DNA from: Octopus vulgaris
Taxonomy: Eukaryota
Direction: 5' to 3'
Length of the DNA: 64,000 nt
Assembly (NCBI GenBank): GCA_951406725.2
Contig: OX597819.1
Location: 744,001 to 808,000, forward strand
Shown here piece by piece: positions 23,822 through 49,477 of this stretch. The position numbers were made by a program, and so were the translations under genes. Position 1 is the stretch's first letter; every line of letters starts with the position of its first letter. The notes under the pieces were generated by a model. The model ran no database searches. It was not told the origin of the DNA and saw nothing but the letters and a program-made list of their open reading frames with translations.

Positions 23822-24556
23822 TCATCATCATCATCATCATCATCATTTAACGTCTGCTTTCCATGCTAGCATGGGTTGGACGATTTGACTGAGGTCTGGC
23901 GAACCAGACTCCAATCTGATCTGGCAGAGTTTCTACAGCTGGATACCCTTCCTAACGCCAACCACTCCGAGAGTGTAGTGGGTGCTTTTACGTGCCACCG
24001 GCACAAGGGCCAGTTTGGTGGTACTGGCAACGGTCACACTCAAATGGTGCTTTTTACGTGCCACCTGCACAGGAGCCAGTCCAGCGGCACTGGTGATGAC
24101 CTCGCTCGAATATTTCACATGCCACCAGCACAAGTGCTAGTAAGGCGACGCAGTAACGATCACACTTGAATGGTGTGCTTAACGTGCCATCAGCACGAAG
24201 GCCAGCTTGTTGCTCTGGCAACGATCTCACTCGTATGGTACTCTTAGCGCTCCACTAGCAACGGATGCCAGTCACCGAATTTGATTTCGACTTCAATTTC
24301 ACTTGCCTCAACTGGTCTTTGCAAGCAGAGTTTAGAGTCCAATGAAGAAAAGGCACGCACAAGTGGACTGGTTACACCCCTAGCATAGGCCACAAGGTTA
24401 TGGCCACCCTTGCGCTTGCCGAGTCTTCTGCAGCACAGCATATTTCCAGAGGTCCCGGTCACTAGTCATTGCCTCGGTGAGGCTCAGTGTTCAAAGGTCA
24501 TGCTTCACCACCACATCCCAGGTCTTCCTGGGTCTACCTCTTCCACAGGTTCCCTC
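23822..24556 (-). mobile_element. RTE LINE 3' fragment
   Basis: (CAT)n tail, conserved CTGGATACCCTTCCTAACGCCAACC motif, remnant of the GRGRPRKTW coding end. Confidence 0.85.
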
Positions 24557-24557
24557 A

Positions 24558-25039
24558 AATTTATTCAATAAAATTGCCATTGGCTTCAACCACGGCCTCC
24601 AGGCGACTTCGGAATCTCCTGCAACTCTTCTGGATGGTCTCCTTGCTTAAGTTGGTGAATGCTGCCATAATCTTTGTCTTCAGTTCATCTTTGGTGTTAC
24701 AAGGAGTTTTGTTTTGTCTTTTGGTCAACTGTGACCCACACATAATAATCAAGGGGGTTGCAGTCTGGGGAGTTAGGTAGCCAGATGTTAGGGGTGATGT
24801 GGTCGCAGAAATTGTCTGACAGCCGTGACTGGGTTCCTCTACTCATGTGGTATGGGACAGACTCCAGTTGCCAGAAATAGGGTCTTACAGCAGCTACCCT
24901 CTTGACCCAAGGCCTCACAACCTCCTCTAGGCACCTGATGTAGGCCTCCGTGTTGAGTCTGAAGCCGTGTGGGAAGATGAATGGAGGCATAACAACATTT
25001 TGTGTAGTTTAGATGACAATTTAATCAACCCACTCTGTA
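24558..25039 (-). mobile_element. Tc1/mariner (maT/DD37D-like) internally deleted fragment
   Basis: WLPNSPDCNPLDYYVW and KSCRRFRSRLEAVVEANGNFIE; TIR at 25007-25038. Confidence 0.8.
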
Positions 25040-25299: not shown

Positions 25300-27385
25300 C
25301 TTATTGTTCCTACACATCTGCCACATACAAAGACTACTTTATCTGTTAATCTACCTGTGATTCCACTGCACCTAGTTTACACAGGGTACAGCGAATGGAA
25401 TTTCTTCCAACTCTTCTCCTACTTATTGAGCTGGGCCATTTTCCTGATGAAAAAAAGAGTTTTATCTTCTCTCTAACTTACGACAACTTTAGTCTTAGTT
25501 AGGTATACTTTAAGGCCCTTTGATTCCCGGTTTTGTTTCCATACCTGTAATTACTTCTCCAATTCTGCTAAAGATTCTGCAATAAGAGCAAGGTCGTCAG
25601 TGTATAGCAGTTCCCATGGGCACCCAGTTTTGAATTCTTTTGTTATGGCCTGGATGACTATAATGAATAAGAGTGGGCTGAGAATTGAGCCCTAGTAAAC
25701 CCCTTTATTCATGGCTGACTCTCACCTTACTGAGAGCACCACTGTACATGGCTTGTACAGCTCTAACAAGCCACTCTTCTACTCCTAACTTCCTTAGAGA
25801 CCGCCATGTAACAGAGCAGGGAACTGTCGAAAGCCTTCTCCAGGTCAATGAAGGCTAAGTACAATGGCTTACTTTTGGCCAAGTACTTTTCCTGCAGCTG
25901 TCTCACTAGGAAGATGGTATCTGTGGTACTCTTCCCAGGTACAAAACCAAACTGAATCTCATCTTGTTTCGTTCCATTTCTAATCCATTCAGCTATAACT
26001 CTCTCAGTAACTTTCATGACTTGGTCTAGCAATTTAACTGCTCTCTAGATGTTTCTGTCTAAGGCATCACCTTTACCCTTATGGCAGCTAACTCTAATAC
26101 TACTACTACACCAATCATTGGGGATGGTGCTTTCCTGAATAACCTGATTAACTAAATGGGTGACTAAGCTGTATCCTACACCACTGGAAATTTTAATCAC
26201 TTCAGCAGTGATTCCTGATGGCCCAGGGGCTTTCCCTCTCTTCATGTCCTTAATTGCCTTATCTATTATTCTCTTATCAACTCTGATGGCTGGTCCCTTA
26301 ACTGGTTCGCTATTTGGTAGACTCTCCTTCTCCCATTCATTTTCCACGTTTAGTAACCTTTCATAGTGACACTTCCATGCGTCTTTCATCTGTGAGTCAC
26401 TAAGTGCAAGCATACCATCATCCATTCGCACACATTTCTCAACTACCACATCTCTACTTTCTCTGATATACTGCTTTGCAATCCTGAACACCTCACACCT
26501 CTGATCCTCACGCTGTAGAACATTTGCAAATCTCTTACCTGCAGCTACCCCTTGTGCTATGTATACCTGACATGTAGCTACCCATTAGGCTACCTGATAT
26601 AATTCTCTGCTTCCAGTATTTTCAGCCAGTCTTTTTGCTTTTATAGCACTGTCAACCTCCTTGCTTCACTACCATGTCACCTTTGGTTTAGCTGGGACTC
26701 TGCACCAACCACAGAGTTCATCCATAGCCCTCAGTAGATTGTCCTGCGGTAGATTGTCCCCAACTCTTCCTCTCTTTCGTCAGAAGCATCCATTTGTAAA
26801 TCTCTAAATTTTTGTCTGTTTGCTGGGTCTTTGAGCTTCCATAGTCTTCTTTTCCAGATTGCTTTATTTCTAGCTCTAATTCTGAAGTCACTTACTAGTA
26901 ACCTATGTTGGGTTGTACACTCTTCACCTGGGAAAGACTCTGGGTTTTTAAGCATCCAACTATCTGGTTGCCTAGTGAAGAGGTAGTCAATCTGGCTTAT
27001 GTGCTCACCAGGCTGATAAGTGATTAGGTGGCTGGCTGGTTTTTTGAAGTTAGTGTTGCAGATCATGAGATCATTTGCATCACAGAGCTCCAGCAGTCTT
27101 GTTCCCTCCTCATTTCTAGGTCCAAAACCATAGCCACCATGTACTCCCTGGAATCCATGGGGGTACTATCCAACATGCCCATTGAAGTCACCAGCCACAA
27201 TAACAAAGTATCTGTCATTTGTCATTGAGGTGATCTGCAAAGGACTTCATAGACTTGGTCCTTCTGCTCATCAGTCAGCCAAGACTGAGGGACATAGGCA
27301 GAGATAAATTTAACTGTTAAATTACCTATGATAAATCTCATCTTAATTACAGAGTCAGCAGTGACCATTGTCTGTGGAATGGCAT
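25300..27385 (-). mobile_element. RTE LINE internal fragment (AP endonuclease + RT), pseudogenised
   Basis: ISAYVPQ, ICNTNFKK...QIDYL, GKAPGPSGI, QFGFVPGKSTTD...LAFIDLEKAFD, WELLYTDD. Confidence 0.92.
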
Positions 27386-27459
27386 TCTTGGTCATCATAG
27401 CATTGGGAAATGCAATACCAATGGTCAGCTTCCCCTGGGCCTTTACACTGAGCATGAAC

Positions 27460-28650
27460 TCATCATCATTAACTTCATATTTTGTCTCCCTACCTGACAA
27501 AAAAACGACACGGAGACACCCACGATCTAAACACTGGCACATCCTTGACTATGTTCTGACAAGATCCAGGGACAGACAAGATATATGCATCACCCACTCC
27601 ATGCCTGGTGAAGATGACTGCTGGACAGATCACCGCTTTCTTATTTCTTGCCTTGACATCAAGATCTGCTGCCCACCAAAGTGGATCTCAGCAAATATTC
27701 TTTGCCGGCGCTTCACTTGCACCAAACACCAGAACTTACAGGCATCTCAAGTCTTTAGAGAATCCATTGAGAGACACCTGATGGACCTCCCTGAGCCAGC
27801 CGCCTTTGAGGATTGCTGGGCCAGCCTTCATGAATCCATGATTGGGTTTGTTTGAAAGAAGGACCAAGACTGGTTTGACAAGAATGATGAAACCATCTCC
27901 CATCTTATTGAAGCCAAACTCCAGATGTGACTAGCCCTCAAGAACCATACCATTGTGGAGAACAAACGAAAACATCAGCAAACATCAACGGAATGCCAGC
28001 GAGGACTTCGAGAAGCTCAGAACAGGACTTCGAGAAGCTCTGGTGGCAGAGGAGGTGCAAAACTATGTGGGTCAATGAGACTTGCACAGCTTTTATGCCA
28101 CAACCAAGGAGATCTTTGACCCACAAGGTCATCAGTGGGTGGCCTGAAGAACACAGCTGGCTCTACGATAACCAACACCTAGGGAATCCTCGATTGCTGG
28201 AAGTCCCATTTCAAGTGCCTACTTAATGACCACTCATGCACTCCTGCCGATCTCCTCCAAAGCACCCCACAGCTCCCCATCCACCACTGGATGTCCCAGC
28301 TGCCCTCACGCCATGAGTTCAAGAAGGCACTTGTGTGCATGAAGCCGGAGAAAGCTCCAGGATCAGATAATATCCCATTTGAGTTTTTCACACACAGAGG
28401 TCCTGAGCTGAGAAATCATCTGATGCTCCTTATTCTCAAGATCTTGGAAAGCAAGACTCCACCCCCAATGACTTCCACGATGCAACTATCATCCCCATCT
28501 ACAAGAAGGGAGACTGAGAGGATTGCAACAACTATCAGAGCATTTCACTCCTGAGTATTGCAAGTAAGATCTTCGCCTGTATCATACTCAATTGCCTCCT
28601 CATCTTCATGGAAGATGTCTCCCCTGAGTCCCAGGGTGGCTTTTGAACCT
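27460..28650 (+). mobile_element. RTE (BovB-like) LINE fragment, endonuclease to start of RT
   Basis: TTRRHPRSKHWHILDYVLTR...DCWTDHR and KAPGSDNIPFEFF motifs. Confidence 0.85.
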
Positions 28651-28714
28651 CTCAGAGGAGGCAGTGCTGCCCTGGATCAAGAGGGCAGCTGCTGGAAGAC
28701 AGGACTCTGCACTA

Positions 28715-29127
28715 TGCCACATAAGCAGGAGAACCCAGTCATGACTGTCAGACAATTTCTGCAACCACATCACCCCTAACATCTGGCCATCTAACTCCCA
28801 AGACTGCAACCCCCTTGATTATTGTGTGGGTGGAACAGTTGAGTGAGAGATAAAAAAAAACTTGTTACATCAAAGATGAACTGGAAGCAAGGATTATGGC
28901 AGCATTCACCAACTTAAGCAAGGAGACACTCCAGATGAGTTGCATGGAATTCCGAAGTGGTCTGGAGGTTGTGGTTGAAGCCAATGGCGATTTTATTGAA
29001 TAAATTTACTCTTTAGTATTTAAAGATATTTTTATGTAATTTTGGTAAATATACCTATTAAAATGAGATGTCAGTATTATTTTCATTTTTGTGTAATTTA
29101 GATGACAATATATTCACTGCATGCTGT
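28715..29127 (+). mobile_element. Tc1/mariner 3' fragment (same family as 24558-25039)
   Basis: NIWPSNSQDCNPLDY, GLEVVVEANGDFIE*, 3' TIR TTTAGATGACAAT...CTG. Confidence 0.8.
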
Positions 29128-30873: not shown

Positions 30874-32409
<1,536 letters not shown>

Positions 32410-32419
32410 TATATATATG

Positions 32420-32655
32420 TGGAGGCACAATGGCCCAGCGGTTAGGGCAGCGGACTCGCGGTCGTAGGATCGCGGTTTCGATTCCCAGATCGGTCGTTGT
32501 GAGTGTTTATTGAGCGAAAACACCTAAAGCTCCACAAGGCTCCTGCAGGGGGTGGTGGCGATCCCTGCTGTACTTTTTCGCCACAACTTTCTCTCACTCT
32601 TTCTTCTGTTGGCCTGCTCGCTTAGCAGGCCAACAAGCGCATTGTGACCAGTGAT
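32420..32655 (+). mobile_element. tRNA-derived SINE (third family); related copy at 35565-35855 on the minus strand
   Basis: TGGCCCAGCGGTTAGGGCAGCGGACTCGCGGTC...GGTTTCGATTCCC head followed by a non-tRNA body. Confidence 0.75.
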
Positions 32656-33195
32656 ATATATATATATATACCTGAAAATTTAACTCAGTCATATATGCAT
32701 ATAAGCTGGCTGAGATGTGTGTGTATATATGGATGTATGTGTGGTCGTGTGTGTGTGTGTTTGTGTGTGTGTGTGTACGTGTACATACTTAAATAATTAA
32801 ATGAAATACACAAAGCTGTACATTTGTATAAATGATACAAGTGTATTTGTACTGTACTGTGCAAGATTGTAGTTTGTTTAAGGTACCAGTAAGCTACTGT
32901 GGAAGCTGCAGATACTTGAAGTTCCTGCTCAGATATTAATGTGCACCTTCAATGTCTTGAAAGTCAGTGTTTTACTTGTCTTATAAAACTATATAATTAG
33001 TGTCTCATAAACATGCCATGGCAATAATAATCAGCCTATGTTTGCAAACCTATTATTTGTTTGTTATAAACTACCAATTAACTCTGAAAAAAAAAGACTC
33101 TTTCCCTAGATATAGAGATAGGTGGAGGGAAAGTAATCAAAATCTCACCCCAAACTGCTGTTGTAAGCAGGATTCATGAGACATATAGTGTACCT

Positions 33196-38209: not shown

Positions 38210-39221
38210 GTATAAATATAAATATATGCAGAACAGTGTATTTGCATGCAGGAAAAAATATAAGAGAATTTATTCGAGGGTTTGAAAATGCACTTGAATC
38301 TCAAAATGTGTAGTCGTTTTAAAATTTTGTAATAGATTTATTCAAATACCAAACTGGTTTTGTCAATTTTTTGCTTATCAATAGTAAAAATAAATAAATA
38401 AAGGGTTTAAGAGAGTTTAAAGTTACAAGGTAAAATTTGGAAAAGCATGTTTAAAAGATCAAATGTTCAAATGTTCACAGCAATTTCAATGAGTTTCACT
38501 GAGATAGACAATATTATAAGTTTAAATGTTCAATGAATATCATAACAAATATACATGATTGAAAGTTCAGTCATATTGAGTTTTTATAAAGATAATGGAG
38601 AAAAAGAAAACGATGAAGAGAAAGAAAAAAATGTTTTTTACAATTTCTGTCATAGTGCATGAAGGAGTTCTTTTCCCAATTTCAGTTGTAGTGCATGAGT
38701 TTCTTCATCTTGGTTGCTTTTTAGAGTTCAAAATGTTTTTAGAGTTCATTTAGTATATTTACATTAGTATGCATTTACAGCAAAGTTTTGATTGGTTGTA
38801 AATTTAATGACGTTTTGTTGGTTTTCTTATGGGTGTTTTGGTCAAAATATTTTTGTTTTTGCAAAATAATCACCCACAACAAAAACAAGAGATGCCATCA
38901 AATTTACAAGCAATCAAAACTTGATTCTTTACATTAAAAACATATATATTTTTTAATGATTTTTACTTTCACACTGTGTGTGTGAATGTTTGTCCCCCAC
39001 TACTGCTTGACAACCAGTGCTGGTGTATTTATGTACCCTGTAACTTAGCAGTTTGTCAAAAGAGATTGATAAAATAAGTACCAGGCTTAAAAAAATAAAT
39101 TGAAAATCTACAGGGGTCAATTCATTCAACTTAAATTCTTTAAGGTGGTGTCCCGACCATGGCTCCAGTCTAATGACCGAAACAAGTAATAAAAAGAATA
39201 AAGGAATATATATATGTATGT

Positions 39222-40800
39222 ATCATCATCATCATCATCATCATCATTTAGCGTCCGCTTTCCATGGGTTGGATGGTTCAACTGGGGTCTGTGAAGCTGG
39301 AAGGCTTCATCAGGCCCAGTCAGATCTGGCAGTGTTTCTACGGCTGGATGCCCTTCCTAACGCCAACCACTCTGTGAGTGTAGTGGGTGCTTTTTACGTG
39401 CCACCTGCACAGGTGCCAGACAGAGCTGGCAAACGGCCACGAACGGATGGTGCTTTTACGTGTCACCGGCACGAGGGCCAGGCGAGGCTGGCAACGGGCA
39501 CGAACGGATGGTGCTTTTACGTGCCACCAACACAGGGGCCAGACAGAGCTGGCAAACGACCACGAAACGGATGGTGCTTTTACGTGTCACCGGCACGGGG
39601 GCCAGGCGAGGCTGGCAACGGGCACGAATGGATGGTGCTTTTACGTGCCACCAACACAGGGGCCAGACAGAGCTGGCAAACGACCACGAAACGGATGGTG
39701 CTTTTACGTGTCACCGGCACGGGGGCCAGGCGAGGCTGGCAACGGACACGAACGGATGGTGCTTTTACGTGCCACCAACACAGGGGCCAGACAGAGCTGG
39801 CAAACGACCACGAAACGGATGGTGCTTTTACGTGTCACCGGCACGGGGGCCAGGCGAGGCTGGCAACGGGCACGAACGGATGGTGCTTTTACATGCCACC
39901 AACACGGCGGCCAGACAGGGCTGGCAAACGGCCACGAACGGATGGTGCTTTTACGTGTTACCGGCACGGGGGCCAGGCGAGGCTGGCAACGGACACGAAC
40001 GGATGGTGCTTTTACATGTCACCGACATGGGGGCCAGACAGGGCTGGCAAACGGACACGAACGGATGGTGCTTTTACATGTCACAGACATGGGGGCCAGA
40101 CAGGGCTGGCAAACGGCCACGAACGGATGGTGCTTTTACGTGTCACCGGCACGAGGGCCAGACAGAGCTGGCAAACGGCCACGAACGGATGGTGCTTTTA
40201 CGTGTCACTGGCGCGGGGCCAGACAGAGCTGGCAAACGGCCACAAACGGATGGTGCTTTTATGTGTCACCGGCACGGGGGCCAGGCCAGGCTGGCAACGA
40301 ACACGAACGGATGGTGCTTTTACGTGCCACCTACACGGGGGCCAGACAGGGCTGGCAAACGGCTACGAACGGATGGTACTTTTACGTGTCACCTGCACGG
40401 GGGCCCTGATGTTGATCAACCTCAATTTGGTTTGATCTTGATTTTGACTGTTCTCACTGGTCTTGCCAGGTTTTCTCACGCACAGCATACCTCCAAAGGT
40501 CTCGGTCACTGGTCATTTCCTTGGTGAGACCTAAAGTTCGAAGGTCGTGCTTCACCGCCTCGACCCAGGTTTTCCTGGGTCTACCTCTTCCACAGGTCCC
40601 CTCAACTGCCAGGGTATGGCACTTTCGCACACAACTATCTTCAGCCATTCTCATCACATGACCATACCAGCGCATACGTCTCTCTTGCACACAACAACTG
40701 ATGCTTCTTAGGTTCAACTTTTCTCTCAAGGTACTTACACTCTGTCGATTATGAACACTGACGTTACACATCCATCGGAGCATACTAGCTTCATTTCTTG
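39222..40800 (-). mobile_element. Young 5'-truncated RTE LINE with a large 3' UTR minisatellite
   Basis: ARNEASMLRWMCNV...GRGRPRKTW...YAVREKT C-terminus, (CAT)n tail. Confidence 0.92.
39385..40405. repeat. GC-rich VNTR, about 20 units of 51-52 bp
   Basis: Unit GGATGGTGCTTTTACGTG(T/C)CACC...GGGCCAG...GCTGGCAA...CACGAAC with alternating variants. Confidence 0.95.
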
Positions 40801-40834
40801 CGATATATATATATGTGTGTGTGTGTGTATGTGT

Positions 40835-40898
<64 letters not shown>

Positions 40899-40900
<2 letters not shown>

Positions 40901-41490
40901 CTTTGTATCTGAAAGAAGTGTCAATGGAAAAGAGTAGGAAAGGAAAAAGGTGAGAGAGACTCTCTTTCACACACTCTCTCTCTCTCACCAGTCAATGATA
41001 AAAATAAATCCAGACAAAAAATTTCTTTGAAAAACAAGACCACCCCTTGGAGTGGCCACCTGATTTTACCATTTTTAAAGGACAAGAATCACTTTCTATT
41101 GAAAGAACTGACCAGCTGCAAAGATGTATACACATTTTTTTCTTTCTCTCTTCCTTTTTTTTTTTCTTCTCTTTTCCATTGACATGCCTTTCAGATAAAC
41201 AAGCACCCACACACGCATGCACACATACATGCACACACAAAAACACACACACACACTCACTCTCTCCCCAGACAATGATAAAAAGAAATCCAAACAATTT
41301 TTTGAAAAGTAACATTTACCCCCCTTGGAGTAGCCACCTGATTTTGCCATTTCTAAAGGCCAAGAATCACTTTCTATTGAAAGAACTGACCAGCTGTATG
41401 GAAGTAAACAATTTTTTCTTCTTTCTCTTTTCCTTCTTCCTTTCCTCCTCTTTTCCATTGAGACTTCTTTCAGATACAAAGGTACACACA
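40899..41490. repeat. Local ~283-bp direct duplication preceded by a short inverted copy of its end
   Basis: 40975-41200 resembles 41255-41480; 40899-40950 is the reverse complement of about 41437-41484. Confidence 0.7.
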
Positions 41491-44113: not shown

Positions 44114-44165
<52 letters not shown>

Positions 44166-44169
<4 letters not shown>

Positions 44170-44385
44170 ATTTAGGAATGGTCATTTAGCCAGTTTAGCC
44201 AATAAAAACACACGCACTATATATTCGGCGTTATTTTGCTTCAGTGATATTTATTTTTTACATTAATCTTAATCTTATTTCGGCCAGAGTTCTTTCGTCA
44301 CACTTCTGTGACCCCATCAGTGGTCCTTTGCTTTCTTCTTTCTTATTTGTGTGTCTCTCCTTACTAACCGTCAGCCATTTTGTAT
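44166..44385 (-). mobile_element. Solo Penelope-like terminal repeat fragment (copy of 49034-49251) with a hammerhead variant at 44282-44326
   Basis: Near identity to 49034-49251; GGACCA-CTGATGGG-GTCACA(GAAG)TGTGAC-GAAA-GAAC-TC-TGGCC. Confidence 0.75.
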
Positions 44386-44490
44386 ATAAATATACATACA
44401 TACATAAATGTATATATGTATGTATATATATACATGTATATTTATGCATATACATATATATGCTTTATATATGTATATGAATATATATAT

Positions 44491-44765
44491 TGTGGTGTGG
44501 TGATGAGGGAGTGTGACAGAGCGGGAGGGAGCGGAAGTGGGTCTTGCAGGACTCGCAGGGTGCATGCGCCGGCAGAAACAGAAGTGAGAGACAGAACGCA
44601 CGTGCGGCATCGACCAGGACAGAGAGACTTGAGAACGACGCCAAGACGAGAAGACGCTAGCAAGTTGGCTCAAGGCGAATCCGGTTTCATCTCTGCAGGT
44701 AAGACCAAATTACACTTCTAATTCTTTCCTTGTTCTGTTACGCTCCTTTCACCACACATATTACA
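44491..44765 (+). repeat. 5' LTR
   Basis: TGTGGTGTGGTG...CACATATTACA; 7 substitutions versus the 3' LTR by manual comparison. Confidence 0.95.
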
Positions 44766-44777
44766 AGCTATTTCGGC
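44766..44777 (+). other. Non-canonical primer-binding site complementary to the 5' end of tRNA-Phe
   Basis: AGCTATTTCGGC is the reverse complement of GCCGAAATAGCT (nt 1-12 of metazoan tRNA-Phe-GAA) and directly abuts the LTR. Confidence 0.75.
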
Positions 44778-44818
44778 AAAATAATCACTCGGTTTCGTAA
44801 AAAAAAAAAAAAAAAATT

Positions 44819-45574
44819 ATGCAGACTGCTATGATTTCACGCGACCCTATAACACCGTTTTGCGGCGACACCGACGTGGTCGCTTGGTTGAGGAGGATAA
44901 AATTGGTGGCGAAGCTACACGGCATAGCTGACCTGGCTAGTTTTATGCCGTTGTATTTGGATGGCCCGGCGTTGGCGTTATATCTGGAGTTGGAGGAGAC
45001 GGACCAACGCAGCGCGGACAAGGTGGAGATCCGACTTATGGAGGCCTTCGCGGAAGGAATGTTTGAAGCGTACACTCGACTGGGTAGAATGAGGTGGACA
45101 GGACAGCAGGTGGACGTGTTCGCCGGCGAGCTGAGAAGGTTGGCAAAACTTGCGGGATATGAGGGAGAGTCGCTAGAACGCACGGTCAGGTTAGCGTTCG
45201 TGACCGGCTTTCCCGACATCATGTCGGTCGAGCTACAGAAGCTCCTGAACGTGCGTTCGATGCCGATGGCCGAGATTATATCGCGGGCACGTGTACTGGT
45301 GTCGTGCAGCAGGTTGACGTCGGTAGCAGCGACTGCAACATCGAAAAGTGGCCCAGCTAGGAGCAACGGAGAGGGGCTGGGGAAAGAACGCGTGCGATCG
45401 TTTAAGGGACAGTGTTTCCGGTGCCAGGGCCCATACATGGTCCGCGACTGCGCGTCGCCCAAGCCCGAGGTGATTTGCTACCGGTGTCGAGAGCCGGGGC
45501 ATGTGGCCAGCGAGTGTCTGCGGGGAAACGGACCGCGGGAGACTACTGCGCCGGTAGTTGTCCCTTTGGATTAG
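44819..45574 (+). CDS. gag: Gag protein with two zinc knuckles
   Basis: 251-aa ORF; CFRCQGPYMVRDC (degenerate) and CYRCREPGHVASEC. Confidence 0.9.
   Translation: MQTAMISRDPITPFCGDTDVVAWLRRIKLVAKLHGIADLASFMPLYLDGPALALYLELEETDQRSADKVEIRLMEAFAEGMFEAYTRLGRMRWTGQQVDVFAGELRRLAKLAGYEGESLERTVRLAFVTGFPDIMSVELQKLLNVRSMPMAEIISRARVLVSCSRLTSVAATATSKSGPARSNGEGLGKERVRSFKGQCFRCQGPYMVRDCASPKPEVICYRCREPGHVASECLRGNGPRETTAPVVVPLD
45523..45565 (+). other. -1 programmed ribosomal frameshift signal
   Basis: G GGA AAC heptamer in the gag frame, 7-nt spacer, hairpin GGGA-GACTACTG(CGC)CGGTAGTT-G-TCCC; pol is -1 relative to gag. Confidence 0.8.
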
Positions 45575-48207
45575 TAGCGGCGCGTTTCTCATCGTTACCT
45601 GTGGTCGACATTCTGGTGAAGGGGAAGATGTCGCGAGCCCTGGTGGACCTGGGCTGTACGACGACCCTGATGACCACAGAAGTGGCAGAGACGTGGAGTG
45701 GAGGAAGCAGTGTCAGGGCAGTCGACGGAAGAGAAGTGCACTGCGAAGGGGTTACGGATGCGCAGATTGTGGTGCAGGGACTGCAGCTGACGTTGCGAGC
45801 GATTGTGGTCGGTCACTTGGTGGACGAGATCGACGTGGTGATGGGGATGGATGCGATCACCCGTCTGGGAGGTGTTACCGTCAACGAGGCTGGTGTTACG
45901 TTTGGGCTAGCAGGGAAGCCGTGTAGGGCGAGACCACGCACCGACAACAACCGTGAGGAAATGGATGCGGCGCACACCATTGAAGACCAGGATTTTCGGG
46001 CTGTCTTTGATGGCGAGAGGTGGACAGTGGAGTGGCACTGGAAGGGAGAGCCCCCGATGTTAAAGAACAAAGTGGGCTGCTATCAGCATACTCTAAAAGG
46101 AGATGCCAGAAGTGAGTTCGAGGGGGAGGTGGAGCGGTGGATTAAGGAGGGCATACTGATCCCCTGGGAAAAAGAAGAGAGTGGAGTCCTGCCACTGATG
46201 GCGGTGATACAGCCCACAAAGCGTAAGGTCAGGCCAGTGCTCGACTTCCGAGAGCTGAATGACCACGTGTCGTGTCATACAGGTGGCGAGGCCACGGATG
46301 TCTGCGGAGACACCTTGCGAGAGTGGAGGCAGACGGCGGGGGCCTCCATGATTGTTGATTTAAAGTCGGCATACCTTCAGGTTCATGTAGCTGAGAAACT
46401 ATGGAGGTACCAGCTCGTCAGGTATAGGGGCCGGACGTACTGTCTGACCAGGTTGGGATTCGGGCTGAATTCAGCTCCGAAGATTATGGCAACAATTCTC
46501 AAGGCCGTCCTGGGGAAGGTGGACAGAGTAAAAAGGGCCACCAATTCATACATCGACGACATTCTGGTGGATGAAACCGTGATACCAGCAACGGAGGTCA
46601 TAGGCCACCTGAAGAGTTTGGGACTGATCGCCAAGCCGCCAGAGGCTATGGAGGGAGGTGCTGCACTGGGCCTCAAGCTATGGAGAGACAAAGCCGGCGC
46701 CTTGGTGTTCCGGCGAGGGAATGAGATCCCTGAACTGGGTGCCAGCATGAGTAGACGGGAGCTGTTCTCTGTGTGTGGGAAGCTGGTGGGACACTACCCG
46801 ATTGCAGGCTGGCTCCAGACAGCATGCAGCTTCATCAAGAGACGAGCCGAAGGAGTGAAGTGGAATGATAAAGTGGGGGAGAGGACGATCGACATGATGC
46901 AGGAAGTCCTGGTCAGAGTAGGAGCAGAGGACCCGGTGAGGGGCAGCTGGTATGTTCCCAAATCAAAGAGCGGGATCGTATGGTGTGACGCCAGTAGCAT
47001 CGCAATAGGGGTTGTCTTGGAAGTGGGAGGTGTCACGGTGGAAGATGCGGCCTGGCTCAGGAAGATGGATGACTGCAGTCACATCAACGTGGCGGAGTTG
47101 GAAGCCGTGCTGAAGGGGGTGAACCTAGCCTTGAAGTGGGGGTTGCACACCATAGAAATCAGGACTGATTCAGCCACTGTACTTGGTTGGGCGACGGCAG
47201 TCATCACCGATGAGCGGAGGGTGCGGACCAAAGGGGCTGCAGAGATGCTGGTAAAGCGTCGATTGGGGATACTGCGTGAACTGACCACTGAGTTCAATCT
47301 GAAGCTGAGCGTGATCTTTGTGCCTTCCGAGAAGAACAGGGCAGACGTCCTGACCAGGGTTAAGCGAGCCTGGTTGCAAGTGCCAGAGGATGCGAAGCAG
47401 GATGTAGCTGCAGTATGCCATCTGAGCGACTCGGAGTTGCGGAGACTGCACACCATGCATCACATGGGTGTGGACAGGACGTTGTTCCTGGCCGGGAAAG
47501 TCGACTCCGATGTAACAAGACAGAGCGTGCGGAGAGTGGTTAGCAGTTGTGACAGGTGCCAGTCCATCGACCCTGCTCCGGTCGTGCATGAAGCAGGAAG
47601 TATTCCAGTAGACCAGGACTGGAGACGACTGGCGGTGGACATAACACACTACCGGCAGGGGACATACCTCTCAATGGTTGACTGCGGACCGGGGCGGTTC
47701 ACCATATGGAGGGAGATGAGGTCAGGAACCGCAGAAGAAATTGAGAAAGTGCTGAAAGTGTTGCCCAGATCAGGACAAGCCGAGGAGTCGGTGCCACACA
47801 GGGCAATATTCAGGTACGAGTGGAGGCATCCGTGTACTACATCAATGCGACCCGGGGCAGAGGAAGAGCACGCCTTCGTGCAGGTCGGGGAGGAAGTCTG
47901 GGTAAAACCCCCGAACGCACGGTGTACATCGCAATGGGGAAAGGGGACAATAACCTCCGTAAATTCAAAGAATAACATCTCGGTAGATGGTATGCCACGC
48001 CACGTTTTGGACATACGGAGGATTGTCCATGCCCCGGAGGATGGGACAAGCAACAGTGGGCAAGACGATAACAACAGACAGGATGACGAGGTCAGCAGCA
48101 ACACGCCAGAAACAAGTCCTAGGGTCGCACTGCGACCACAGAGGGAGCGGCACCCTCCTCCCTGGTTGGCTGACTACGAAACCAGTTTCAGGTGCGGGAG
48201 CGAGTGA
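45529..48207 (+). CDS. pol: Pol polyprotein: aspartic protease, RT, RNase H, truncated integrase
   Basis: ALVDLGC (PR), DLKSAYLQ and SYIDDIL (RT), CDASS...HINVAELEAV...RTDS...NRADVLTR (RH), H-x3-H...CDRC and LAVDITH (IN). Confidence 0.93.
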   Translation, partial: RTAGDYCAGSCPFGLVAARFSSLPVVDILVKGKMSRALVDLGCTTTLMTTEVAETWSGGSSVRAVDGREVHCEGVTDAQIVVQGLQLTLRAIVVGHLVDEIDVVMGMDAITRLGGVTVNEAGVTFGLAGKPCRARPRTDNNREEMDAAHTIEDQDFRAVFDGERWTVEWHWKGEPPMLKNKVGCYQHTLKGDARSEFEGEVERWIKEGILIPWEKEESGVLPLMAVIQPTKRKVRPVLDFRELNDHVSCHTGGEATDVCGDTLREWRQTAGASMIVDLKSAYLQVHVAEKLWRYQLVRYRGRTYCLTRLGFGLNSAPKIMATILKAVLGKVDRVKRATNSYIDDILVDETVIPATEVIGHLKSLGLIAKPPEAMEGGAALGLKLWRDKAGALVFRRGNEIPELGASMSRRELFSVCGKLVGHYPIAGWLQTACSFIKRRAEGVKWNDKVGERTIDMMQEVLVRVGAEDPVRGSWYVPKSKSGIVWCDASSIAIGVVLEVGGVTVEDAAWLRKMDDCSHINVAELEAVLKGVNLALKWGLHTIEIRTDSATVLGWATAVITDERRVRTKGAAEMLVKRRLGILRELTTEFNLKLSVIFVPSEKNRADVLTRVKRAWLQVPEDAKQDVAAVCHLSDSELRRLHTMHHMGVDRTLFLAGKVDSDVTRQSVRRVVSSCDRCQSIDPAPVVHEAGSIPVDQDWRRLAVDITHYRQGTYLSMVDCGPGRFTIWREMRSGTAEEIEKVLKVLPRSGQAEESVPHRAIFRYEWRHPCTTSMRPGAEEEHAFVQVGEEVWVKPPNARCTSQWGKGTITSVNSKNNISVDGMPRHVLDIRRIVHAPEDGTSNSGQDDNNRQDDEVSSNTPETSPRVALRPQRERHPPPWLADYETSFRCGSE

Positions 48208-48243
48208 GGAAGCCGGTTCAGTGATCTATAGATCAGGGGGGCG

Positions 48244-48518
48244 TGTGGTGTGGTGATGAGGGAGTGTGACAGAGCGGGAGGGAGTGGAAGTGGGTCTTGC
48301 AGGTCTCGCAGGGCGCATGCGCCGGCGGAAGCGGAAGTGAGAGACAGAACGCACGTGCGGCATCGACCAGGACAGAGAGACTTGAGAACGACGCCAAGAC
48401 GAGAAGACGCTAGCAAGTTGGCTCAAGGCGAATCCGGCTTCATCTCTGCAGGTAAGACCAAATTACACTTCTAATTCTTTCCTTGTTCTGTTACGCTCCT
48501 TTCACCACACATATTACA
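48244..48518 (+). repeat. 3' LTR
   Basis: Direct repeat of 44491-44765. Confidence 0.95.
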
Positions 48519-48553
48519 TATATATATATATATATGAATATATATATATATAG

Positions 48554-49023: not shown

Positions 49024-49033
49024 ATATATATAT

Positions 49034-49477
49034 TTGTATTTAGGAATGGTCATTTAGCCAGTTTAGCCAATAAAAACACACGCACTATATATTTGGTGTT
49101 ATTTTGCTTCAGTGATATTTATCTTTTACATTAATCTTAATCTTATTTCGGCCAGAGTTCTTTCGTCACACTCCTGTGACCGCATCAGTGGTCCTTTGTT
49201 TTCTTCTTTCTTATTTGTGTCTCTCCTTATTAACCGTCAGCCATTTTGTATTTCTATTGTATGTCTTCATTTGCGCATGCTTATATCTCTATGTGCGTCT
49301 ATGTTTAGTTAGTGTGTGTGTAGGGGGAGATGCCTGTAATATTTGTATCTTCTGTTTATATACATTCGTGTAATTTGTTTTTGTTTATTCTTATTTTGTT
49401 CATGTGTTTACACCCACTTATTATTATCATCATCATCATCATTATTATTATTATTATTATTATTATTGTCATTATTA

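Follow-up and report, generated by a model that had tools for sequence, protein, structure and literature searches.

The 64,000-nucleotide stretch of Octopus vulgaris DNA analysed here (positions 744,001 to 808,000 of contig OX597819.1, assembly GCA_951406725.2; hereafter the window) contains a long terminal repeat (LTR) retrotransposon of 4,028 bp at 44491..48518 on the + strand, in which two LTRs enclose gag and a pol gene for protease, reverse transcriptase, RNase H and integrase (PR-RT-RH-IN). A preliminary description of the window had taken it for an atypical element combining DIRS-like RT/RNase H with a protease and a DDE integrase. The most unusual feature of the element, missed in that description, is its primer-binding site (PBS), which matches the 5' end of tRNA-Phe. 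On our overall reading, which we hold with reasonable though not high confidence, the element is an integrase-deleted copy from a young family, belongs to an unnamed DUF7047 lineage that is likely sister to BEL/Pao, and would be primed by a 5' fragment of tRNA-Phe.

Structure of the element

The element is bounded by direct repeats at 44491-44765 and 48244-48518, which are 275 nt each and 97% identical. A Pfam scan of pol returned weak matches to protease, RT, RNase H and the integrase zinc finger, bearing out the domain order PR-RT-RH-IN given in the preliminary description, and the motifs quoted there (RPVLDFRELN, DLKSAYLQV, CDASS and HINVAELEAV) were all found at the expected places. The sole strong Pfam match was to DUF7047 (PF23088; 81 bits), between RT and RNase H. 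The features are as follows.

44486..44490, no strand: left target-site duplication (TSD) TATAT, 5 bp, within a (TA)n run; from sequence, length set by sister copies
44491..44765, +: 5' LTR, 275 bp, TG..CA; from repeat search; 7 substitutions relative to the 3' LTR, Kimura two-parameter distance (K2P) 0.026
44766..44777, +: PBS AGCTATTTCGGC, adjoining the LTR; exact reverse complement of host tRNA-Phe(GAA) nt 1-12
44819..45574, +: gag open reading frame (ORF), 251 aa, with two C-terminal zinc knuckles
45413-45451, +: gag knuckle 1, His replaced by Tyr in the window copy; from sequence
45476-45517, +: gag knuckle 2, CX2CX4HX4C; from sequence
45406-48207, +: pol open frame, 933 codons, -1 relative to gag
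45523..45529, +: slippery heptamer G GGA AAC, read in the gag frame, with a predicted stem downstream; from sequence, putative frameshift site
45604..45864, +: aspartic protease, DLG at 45646; PF13975 at E 0.006, below cut-off; the family profile matches Ddi1 protease
46048..46695, +: RT fingers/palm, with RPVLDFRELN at 46231, DLKSAYLQV at 46357 and YIDD at 46549; from Pfam, model and motifs
46750..46920, +: DUF7047 (PF23088), putative RT thumb; 81 bits, hhalign to BEL, helical in the model
46972..47358, +: RNase H (CDASS, HINVAELEAV, TDSAT, RADVLTR), directly after the thumb with no tether; from Pfam, model and motifs
47437..48204, +: integrase with HHCC finger, core start, in-frame 228-bp deletion at ~47756 and C-terminal part; defective
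48222..48243, +: short palindromic hairpin (48222-48235), G-tract polypurine tract (PPT; 48235-48241) and CG dinucleotide, followed by the 3' LTR
48244..48518, +: 3' LTR, 275 bp; from repeat search
48519..48523, no strand: right TSD TATAT; from sequence

In hhalign, the DUF7047 segment is paired with the beginning of the Peptidase_A17 region of BEL, and we infer from its position and from the structure model that it is the RT thumb. As had been claimed, the element is richer in GC and CpG than its host, with a GC content of 0.56 and a CpG observed/expected ratio of 0.86 vs 0.36 and 0.39 in the rest of the window. Other GC-rich stretches of the window (0.45-0.54 vs a background of 0.33) lie at 24001-25000, 27001-29000, 31001-33000 and 39001-41000. 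Immediately upstream of the gag ATG is a run of 18 A at 44799-44816, and A-rich leaders are found in other families too.

The primer-binding site

TGG is absent after the 5' LTR. The sequence at 44766-44777 is exactly reverse-complementary to the 5' end of tRNA-Phe(GAA), namely to its nt 1-12. The pattern extended by three further tRNA bases occurred 94 times in the genome vs 0 times for the control, and all six pattern loci checked with ARAGORN proved to be tRNA-Phe(GAA) genes whose first nucleotide is the matched base; within the window, no tRNA genes were found. By arithmetic, an exact match to any 5' end among ~60 tRNAs would arise by chance with a probability of ~4e-6.

The exact 12-mer was found directly after the LTR end ..ACA in 34 of 38 element loci, and in 37 of 38 with at most two mismatches. 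A 14-mer made up of LTR end and PBS had 287 matches in the genome vs 14 for the reversed control; a family protein, with Gag identities of 43-98%, lies downstream of 26 of the first 30 matches. The base following the 12-mer varies (A18/G5/C5/T2), and thus conservation stops at tRNA position 1. Moreover, the 12-mer was the longest complement of tRNA-Phe (with CCA added) in 6/6 elements, the runner-up being 8-9 nt, and it places tRNA nt 12 opposite the last LTR base, where the primer 3' end must lie. Pairing of tRNA nt 13-18 into the LTR was not found. In total, these sites match the tRNA at 12/12 positions, lie at the LTR end and are invariant across diverged families of this genome. From these sequences, the most likely primer of minus-strand synthesis is a 5'-terminal fragment of tRNA-Phe. 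Two points weigh against this conclusion, i.e. the PBS was examined in one genome only, and the primer molecule was not observed and the 12-nt match could have another role. Searches of IMG/VR and GTDB yielded no foreign DNA loci of the lineage.

We consider it quite unlikely that the 5' strand of tRNA-Phe only anchors the tRNA while its freed 3' CCA primes at a second site, i.e. that the element has a bipartite PBS as in Ty3 and needs no internal cut. The Ty3 PBS is split, with D-arm contacts, in the available text of PMC5371799, and pairing of nt 1-7 would be expected to displace the 3' acceptor strand. However, near the LTR nothing complementary to the tRNA 3' end was found; the complement of the 3'-terminal 8 nt was present in 0 of 5 tested elements; the sole 8-nt match (nt 68-75) occurs within gag in two of six elements, while four lack it; and the 12-mer is located exactly where the primer 3' end must lie. 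Finally, it is highly improbable that the element RNA primes itself, either plainly as in Tf1 or via an LTR-internal splice junction, and that the tRNA match is coincidental, because, while eight of 14 LTRs have a donor-like AG/GTRAG site, the best LTR match among these 14 was 6-8/12 unspliced and 8-10/12 spliced vs 8.2-9.0 for shuffled sequences and 12/12 for the tRNA, the PBS is constant while the LTRs differ, and an exact match to some tRNA 5' end is rare by the chance estimate given above.

In the window copy, a donor-like AG/GTAAG site at 44697-44703 (and in the 3' LTR) is followed by a pyrimidine-rich stretch and does not build a primer. Elsewhere in the genome, every unit of a tandem array with a 200-bp period (G000:C18:30147732-30157146) matches the tRNA-Phe 5' pattern.

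PBS finders that look only at tRNA 3' ends would miss or mislabel this lineage. A full-text literature search, outside whose listings Repbase and subscription journals lie, returned no paper naming DUF7047 and none describing the lineage or priming by a tRNA 5' end. In published text, the PBS 12-mer occurred in three papers, all of which are, by title and beginning of the abstract, on tRNA-modifying enzymes. Thus, the 5'-tRNA primer site is apparently undescribed; the lineage itself may possibly have been catalogued before under a Gypsy or BEL label.

Copy number, target sites and state of the window copy

The genome (2.8 Gb in 227 contigs) was searched with the LTR, and 40 of 143 candidates were scored. 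We fetched 20 loci, 18 of which have two full LTRs; L049 and L050, each with one partial LTR, were left out of the TSD count. All 18 complete sister copies have TG..CA termini and a 5-bp TSD, and represent 16 independent insertions because three share one flank. Fourteen copies fit only 5 bp, while two also fit 3 bp and two also fit 2 bp, through repeats. Among a second set of 20 loci judged by eye, 12 have an exact 5-bp TSD and one has 5 bp with a mismatch; the remainder comprises three loci sharing one flank with 4 bp, one ambiguous locus and three unreadable ones. Of the two lengths allowed by the preliminary description, 3 bp and 5 bp, only the latter held, and the odd-length TSD presented there as special is an ordinary 5-bp TSD. 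The insertion point of the window copy is a (TA)n run between two copies of a 230-bp repeat (44156-44385 and 49024-49251; 95% identical) that flank the element.

The K2P of sister LTR pairs ranged from 0 to 0.0185, compared with 0.026 for the window pair, and five of 18 pairs are identical. In 12 of 18 sister copies, a pol frame of at least 988 codons is kept. We conclude that the family is a young 4.25-kb LTR retrotransposon family. By contrast, the window copy is defective with its integrase core deleted: relative to all 20 sister loci it has lost 228 bp at ~47756, it is short of ~76 integrase-core residues present in foreign homologs, and a Pfam scan gave no match to PF00665. The deletion leaves no complete DDE integrase and, being in frame, was concealed by the open gag and pol frames that had been reported, correctly as such. 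Thus, recent activity, also proposed earlier, applies to the family and not to this copy, and the joining of a protease and DDE integrase to RT/RNase H is right as to order although the window copy lacks the complete integrase. The copy could be mobilized only with an integrase from another copy. Its Gag also differs in knuckle 1, in which a Tyr replaces the His found in 17 of 18 matched copies; the knuckles of the family are CX2CX3HX4C and CX2CX4HX4C.

PF23088 was detected at at least 150 places in the genome (521 candidates), which fall into at least two major families of ~70-77% DNA identity. Among 34 copies whose PBS is exact, 32 have the G GGA AAC heptamer, with both major families represented, and the layout of hairpin, G-tract and CG is the same in 6/6 copies inspected, again from both. 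L407, L408, L414 and L420, compared with L405, have an LTR start like that of the window family and an interior that shares ~95% identity with the second major family, an apparent LTR swap.

Lineage range and protein profile

Among 8,000 scored candidates, 777 were relatives. At 50% identity, the matches formed 462 clusters at E<=1e-30, 1,586 at 1e-10 and 3,103 at 1e-3. Named members come from molluscs, arthropods and a sponge (Argonauta, Aplysia, Plakobranchus, Oratosquilla, Petrolisthes, Nymphon and the sponge Sycon); among them, the closest homolog is from Argonauta hians (69%). The homologs carry PF00665 and a protease and have no PF00589, and the D,D(35)E integrase spacing was counted on them. 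Longer fused forms were limited to two matches. In one Nymphon gene model (P0123), the lineage pol is joined to a GCN2 kinase, probably an annotation artefact.

PF23088 was found in 18/18 family proteins scanned, and PF17917, PF17919, PF05380 and PF18701 in 0/18; PF05380 and PF18701 are markers of BEL, in agreement with the BEL proteins retrieved. RVT_1 was matched in 16 of 18 family proteins at only 17-45 bits (cut-off 29.6), compared with 60-120 bits in 12 Gypsy RTs of the same genome and 76-92 in seven DIRS-type RTs. In a PDB sequence search with a single protein, RT was matched only at E>=0.007, and with the family profile the best matches were retroviral integrases. The structure model (predicted local distance difference test 85.5) had as its best full-length fold the tetherless RT of cauliflower mosaic virus (8r0s; template modelling score 0.69); the fold searches, in a set with no BEL or DIRS structures, recovered an RT-RNase H fold at 10-20% identity and thus give no placement.

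The preliminary description had named the element a candidate for horizontal transfer. Among young Gypsy loci of this genome, CpG observed/expected ratios are 0.47-1.05 and GC contents 0.37-0.57, and because they reach like values the high GC and CpG of the element are no proof of transfer. Moreover, several diverged families of the lineage reside together in this genome, and no near-identical foreign protein was found among the 777 relatives, the best being 72% identical. In total, these observations do not support horizontal transfer of this family; in the deeper past, transfer may have occurred.

Phylogenetic placement

As references, we used Gypsy elements of the same genome (recognized by PF17917), DIRS-type metagenome loci, BEL proteins, IMG/VR records and LINEs. 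Of ten candidate DIRS-type ORFs, four have PF00589 over the cut-off, two a weak recombinase and four none. Caulimovirus, retrovirus, hepadnavirus, Mag-like and CsRn1-like labels are our own, assigned on the basis of motifs. Copia is outside the trees, with three decayed matches in the same genome and none in IMG/VR. The tyrosine-recombinase loci of the same genome gave no RT match.

In the RT tree (57 rows), Gypsy and caulimoviruses formed a group excluding the family (support 97/94), the family grouped with BEL and DIRS (96/95), and the family grouped with BEL (87/72). Support for family and BEL was 99/94 without DIRS and 96/96 in a tree of RT, thumb and RNase H; adding members 36-42% identical raised it to 100/98, shortened the stem from 2.13 to 1.33 and removed the long-branch warning. 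Without BEL, the family was unplaced, still outside Gypsy and caulimoviruses (99/97), and not joined to DIRS with support. The approximately unbiased (AU) test on RT and RNase H rejected uniting the family with Gypsy (p 0.012, 0.003), Mag-like (0.001) and CsRn1-like (0.002) elements. In these trees, the RT/RNase H is sister to the sampled BEL elements, a narrow sample, and not inside them. In total, these sequence comparisons suggest that the lineage is probably a superfamily-level branch, sister to BEL/Pao and outside every tested family. Thus, the earlier view that it is a poorly characterised lineage not nested in Gypsy was supported, including against nesting in a Mag or CsRn1 clade, which had been named there as an example of a refuting outcome.

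Several observations weigh against a BEL/Pao sister relationship. Sampling was thin, with 5-8 Gypsy elements, BEL mostly from one clade, and no Copia, Troyka, Odin/Loki, Ngaro or VIPER. The initial tree of RT, thumb and RNase H came with a warning that two long branches meet. The AU test on RT and RNase H did not reject family with DIRS (p 0.11, 0.19) or with Gypsy and caulimoviruses together (p 0.18, 0.19), and on RT only it rejected nothing (DIRS 0.07, Gypsy 0.11, the Gypsy and Caulimoviridae side 0.14). Finally, in hhalign BEL scored lowest for the RT core (DIRS 122, retrovirus 112, Gypsy 109, caulimovirus 89, BEL 77) and for the integrase (Gypsy 142, retrovirus 117, BEL 68).

These scores bear on the possibility, which we regard as unlikely but worth weighing, that the lineage is a chimera of a DIRS-type RT/RNase H with a Gypsy-like protease, DDE integrase and LTRs, and that the grouping with BEL is due to long-branch attraction. 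The best RT core match to DIRS and the best integrase match to Gypsy fit such an origin, as do the RNase H motif HIN..EL.AV, which is shared with DIRS, the AU values of 0.07-0.19 for family with DIRS, and lineage integrases that fall into two separate groups in an otherwise unresolved integrase tree. However, thumb and RNase H together scored best with BEL (52.5, compared with DIRS 47.8, caulimovirus 31 and Gypsy 29), as did RNase H alone (49.6 vs 44.3), the family did not unite with DIRS with support once BEL was removed, and support for BEL grew as the stem broke up. Accordingly, the DIRS-like RT of the preliminary description stands for the RT-core score and motifs, while thumb and RNase H scores and all trees containing BEL favour BEL/Pao. 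In the branch of P0426, P0442 and P0449, which includes a Sycon protein, the integrase is unlike that of the rest and hints at integrase exchange within the lineage.

It is rather improbable that the lineage is a fast-evolving Gypsy (Metaviridae) clade, perhaps one already in Repbase or among the MolGy clades. It has the Gypsy domain order, no tether, D,D(35)E, TG..CA and a 5-bp TSD; 16 MolGy clades exist; and the RT-only AU test gave p 0.11. Atlas searches disagree, leading with RT-RNase H to unnamed, partly euglenozoan clusters and with the whole Gag-Pol to Gypsy clusters, which are its whole-protein language-model neighbours. By contrast, uniting the family with Gypsy was rejected on RT and RNase H (p 0.003-0.012), no Gypsy RNase H Pfam match was found in 18 proteins, and the RT score of 109 between family and Gypsy is below those of the controls (DIRS-Gypsy 206, Gypsy-caulimovirus 400). 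The family motifs are also not in the available parts of two published reference alignments (supplements of PMC11673190 and PMC9040795), in which gaps or cut lines could hide motifs.

Proposed mechanism

A -1 frameshift at G GGA AAC would yield Gag-Pol. Inside the particle, the 5' acceptor strand and the first D-stem bases of tRNA-Phe would anneal to the PBS, and the 3'-OH would come from a cut after nt 12 or from a ready-made fragment. The cut might fall after nt 10 instead if the two LTR-adjacent bases are an extension trimmed by integrase, like the CG at the other end. The RNase H of Tf1 cleaves an RNA duplex to make the primer; here, the RNA duplex would most likely be cut by the RNase H that the element itself encodes or, failing that, by a host nuclease, as in Ty5. 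The plus strand would start at the G-tract behind the small conserved hairpin and run off the primer 5' end. Such run-off copying would rewrite exactly the PBS in each cycle, and therefore conservation would stop at tRNA position 1. Finally, the D,D(35)E integrase would insert the DNA with a 5-bp stagger.

Significance

Deep LTR lineages are few, and the recent additions, Odin and Troyka/Kuafuorterviruses, each changed taxonomy. The lineage described here is large (462 clusters) and mostly below the Pfam RT cut-off, and standard pipelines would miss or mislabel it. A BEL/Pao relative with DIRS-like RT motifs would bear on the relationship between LTR and tyrosine-recombinase retroelements. If true, tRNA 5'-end priming would mean that very short 5' tRNA fragments are used directly in reverse transcription, would link RNA cleavage as in Tf1 with tRNA priming, and would predict escape from silencing by 3' tRNA fragments.

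Comparison with known systems

Retroviridae, Loki and Odin are contradicted by the absence of a tether between RT and RNase H, which directly follows the thumb, and Pseudoviridae (Copia) because the integrase is not upstream of RT. Troyka, to which the preliminary description had tentatively assigned the element, is defined by CG..CG ends, a 3-bp TSD and CX2CX8-10HX4C knuckles (PMC12440569) and corresponds, in the available text of PMC11673190, to Kuafuorterviruses with I/V/LADD in RT. Troyka resembles the present element in being a small LTR lineage of aquatic animals with PR-RT-RH-IN and no tether, outside Gypsy, and Troyka/Kuafuorterviruses are a precedent for an overlooked superfamily. However, TG..CA, the 5-bp TSD in 18/18 copies, YIDD and the CX2CX3HX4C and CX2CX4HX4C knuckles all contradict that assignment; moreover, Troyka mostly has one Gag-Pol ORF and a length of 5-6 kb, from both of which the element differs. 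IADD occurs in the RT of L217, L222, L225 and L229 of the same genome together with a Gypsy-type RNase H and, therefore, is by itself no Troyka marker.

The lineage resembles Metaviridae (Ty3/Gypsy) in domain order, -1 frameshift signal, D,D(35)E, TG..CA and a 5-bp TSD (4-6 bp class), of which PR-RT-RH-IN, TG..CA and the TSD are shared with BEL and thus not diagnostic for Gypsy; unlike Metaviridae, its RT/RNase H lies outside the sampled clade and PF17917 and PF17919 are absent. With DIRS it shares RT-core motifs, the RNase H motif HIN..EL and the highest RT profile score; DIRS-1 has RPVLDLKRLN and PFGLSTAPRIF in the available part of a published alignment. Unlike DIRS, it has a protease, DDE integrase, direct LTRs, TSD, PBS and PPT, and no tyrosine recombinase or methyltransferase-like tail was seen.

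BEL/Pao elements are 4.2-10 kb long, may have overlapping gag and pol, and have an 18-nt PBS complementary to the 3' end of tRNA-Arg/Gly (PMC8742986). The lineage is like them in PR-RT-RH-IN, LTRs, a size at the low end of this range and thumb/RNase H motifs, and they are its best sister in the trees. It differs from them in lacking PF05380 and PF18701 (0/18), in its two knuckles, in forming a separate clade on a long stem, in its D(35)E spacing compared with D(49)E in the BEL protein P0125, and in a PBS of 12 nt to the 5' end of tRNA-Phe.

In the available text of PMC5371799, priming is described from an intact tRNA 3' end, at bipartite sites, from a half-tRNA cut in the anticodon loop (copia/Ty5) and without a tRNA (Tf1). 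The proposed priming would be like that of copia/Ty5 and Tf1 in that the primer 3' end arises by internal RNA cleavage; whereas Ty5 cuts tRNA-iMet in the anticodon loop and Tf1 is tRNA-free, only nt 1-12 of tRNA-Phe pair here.

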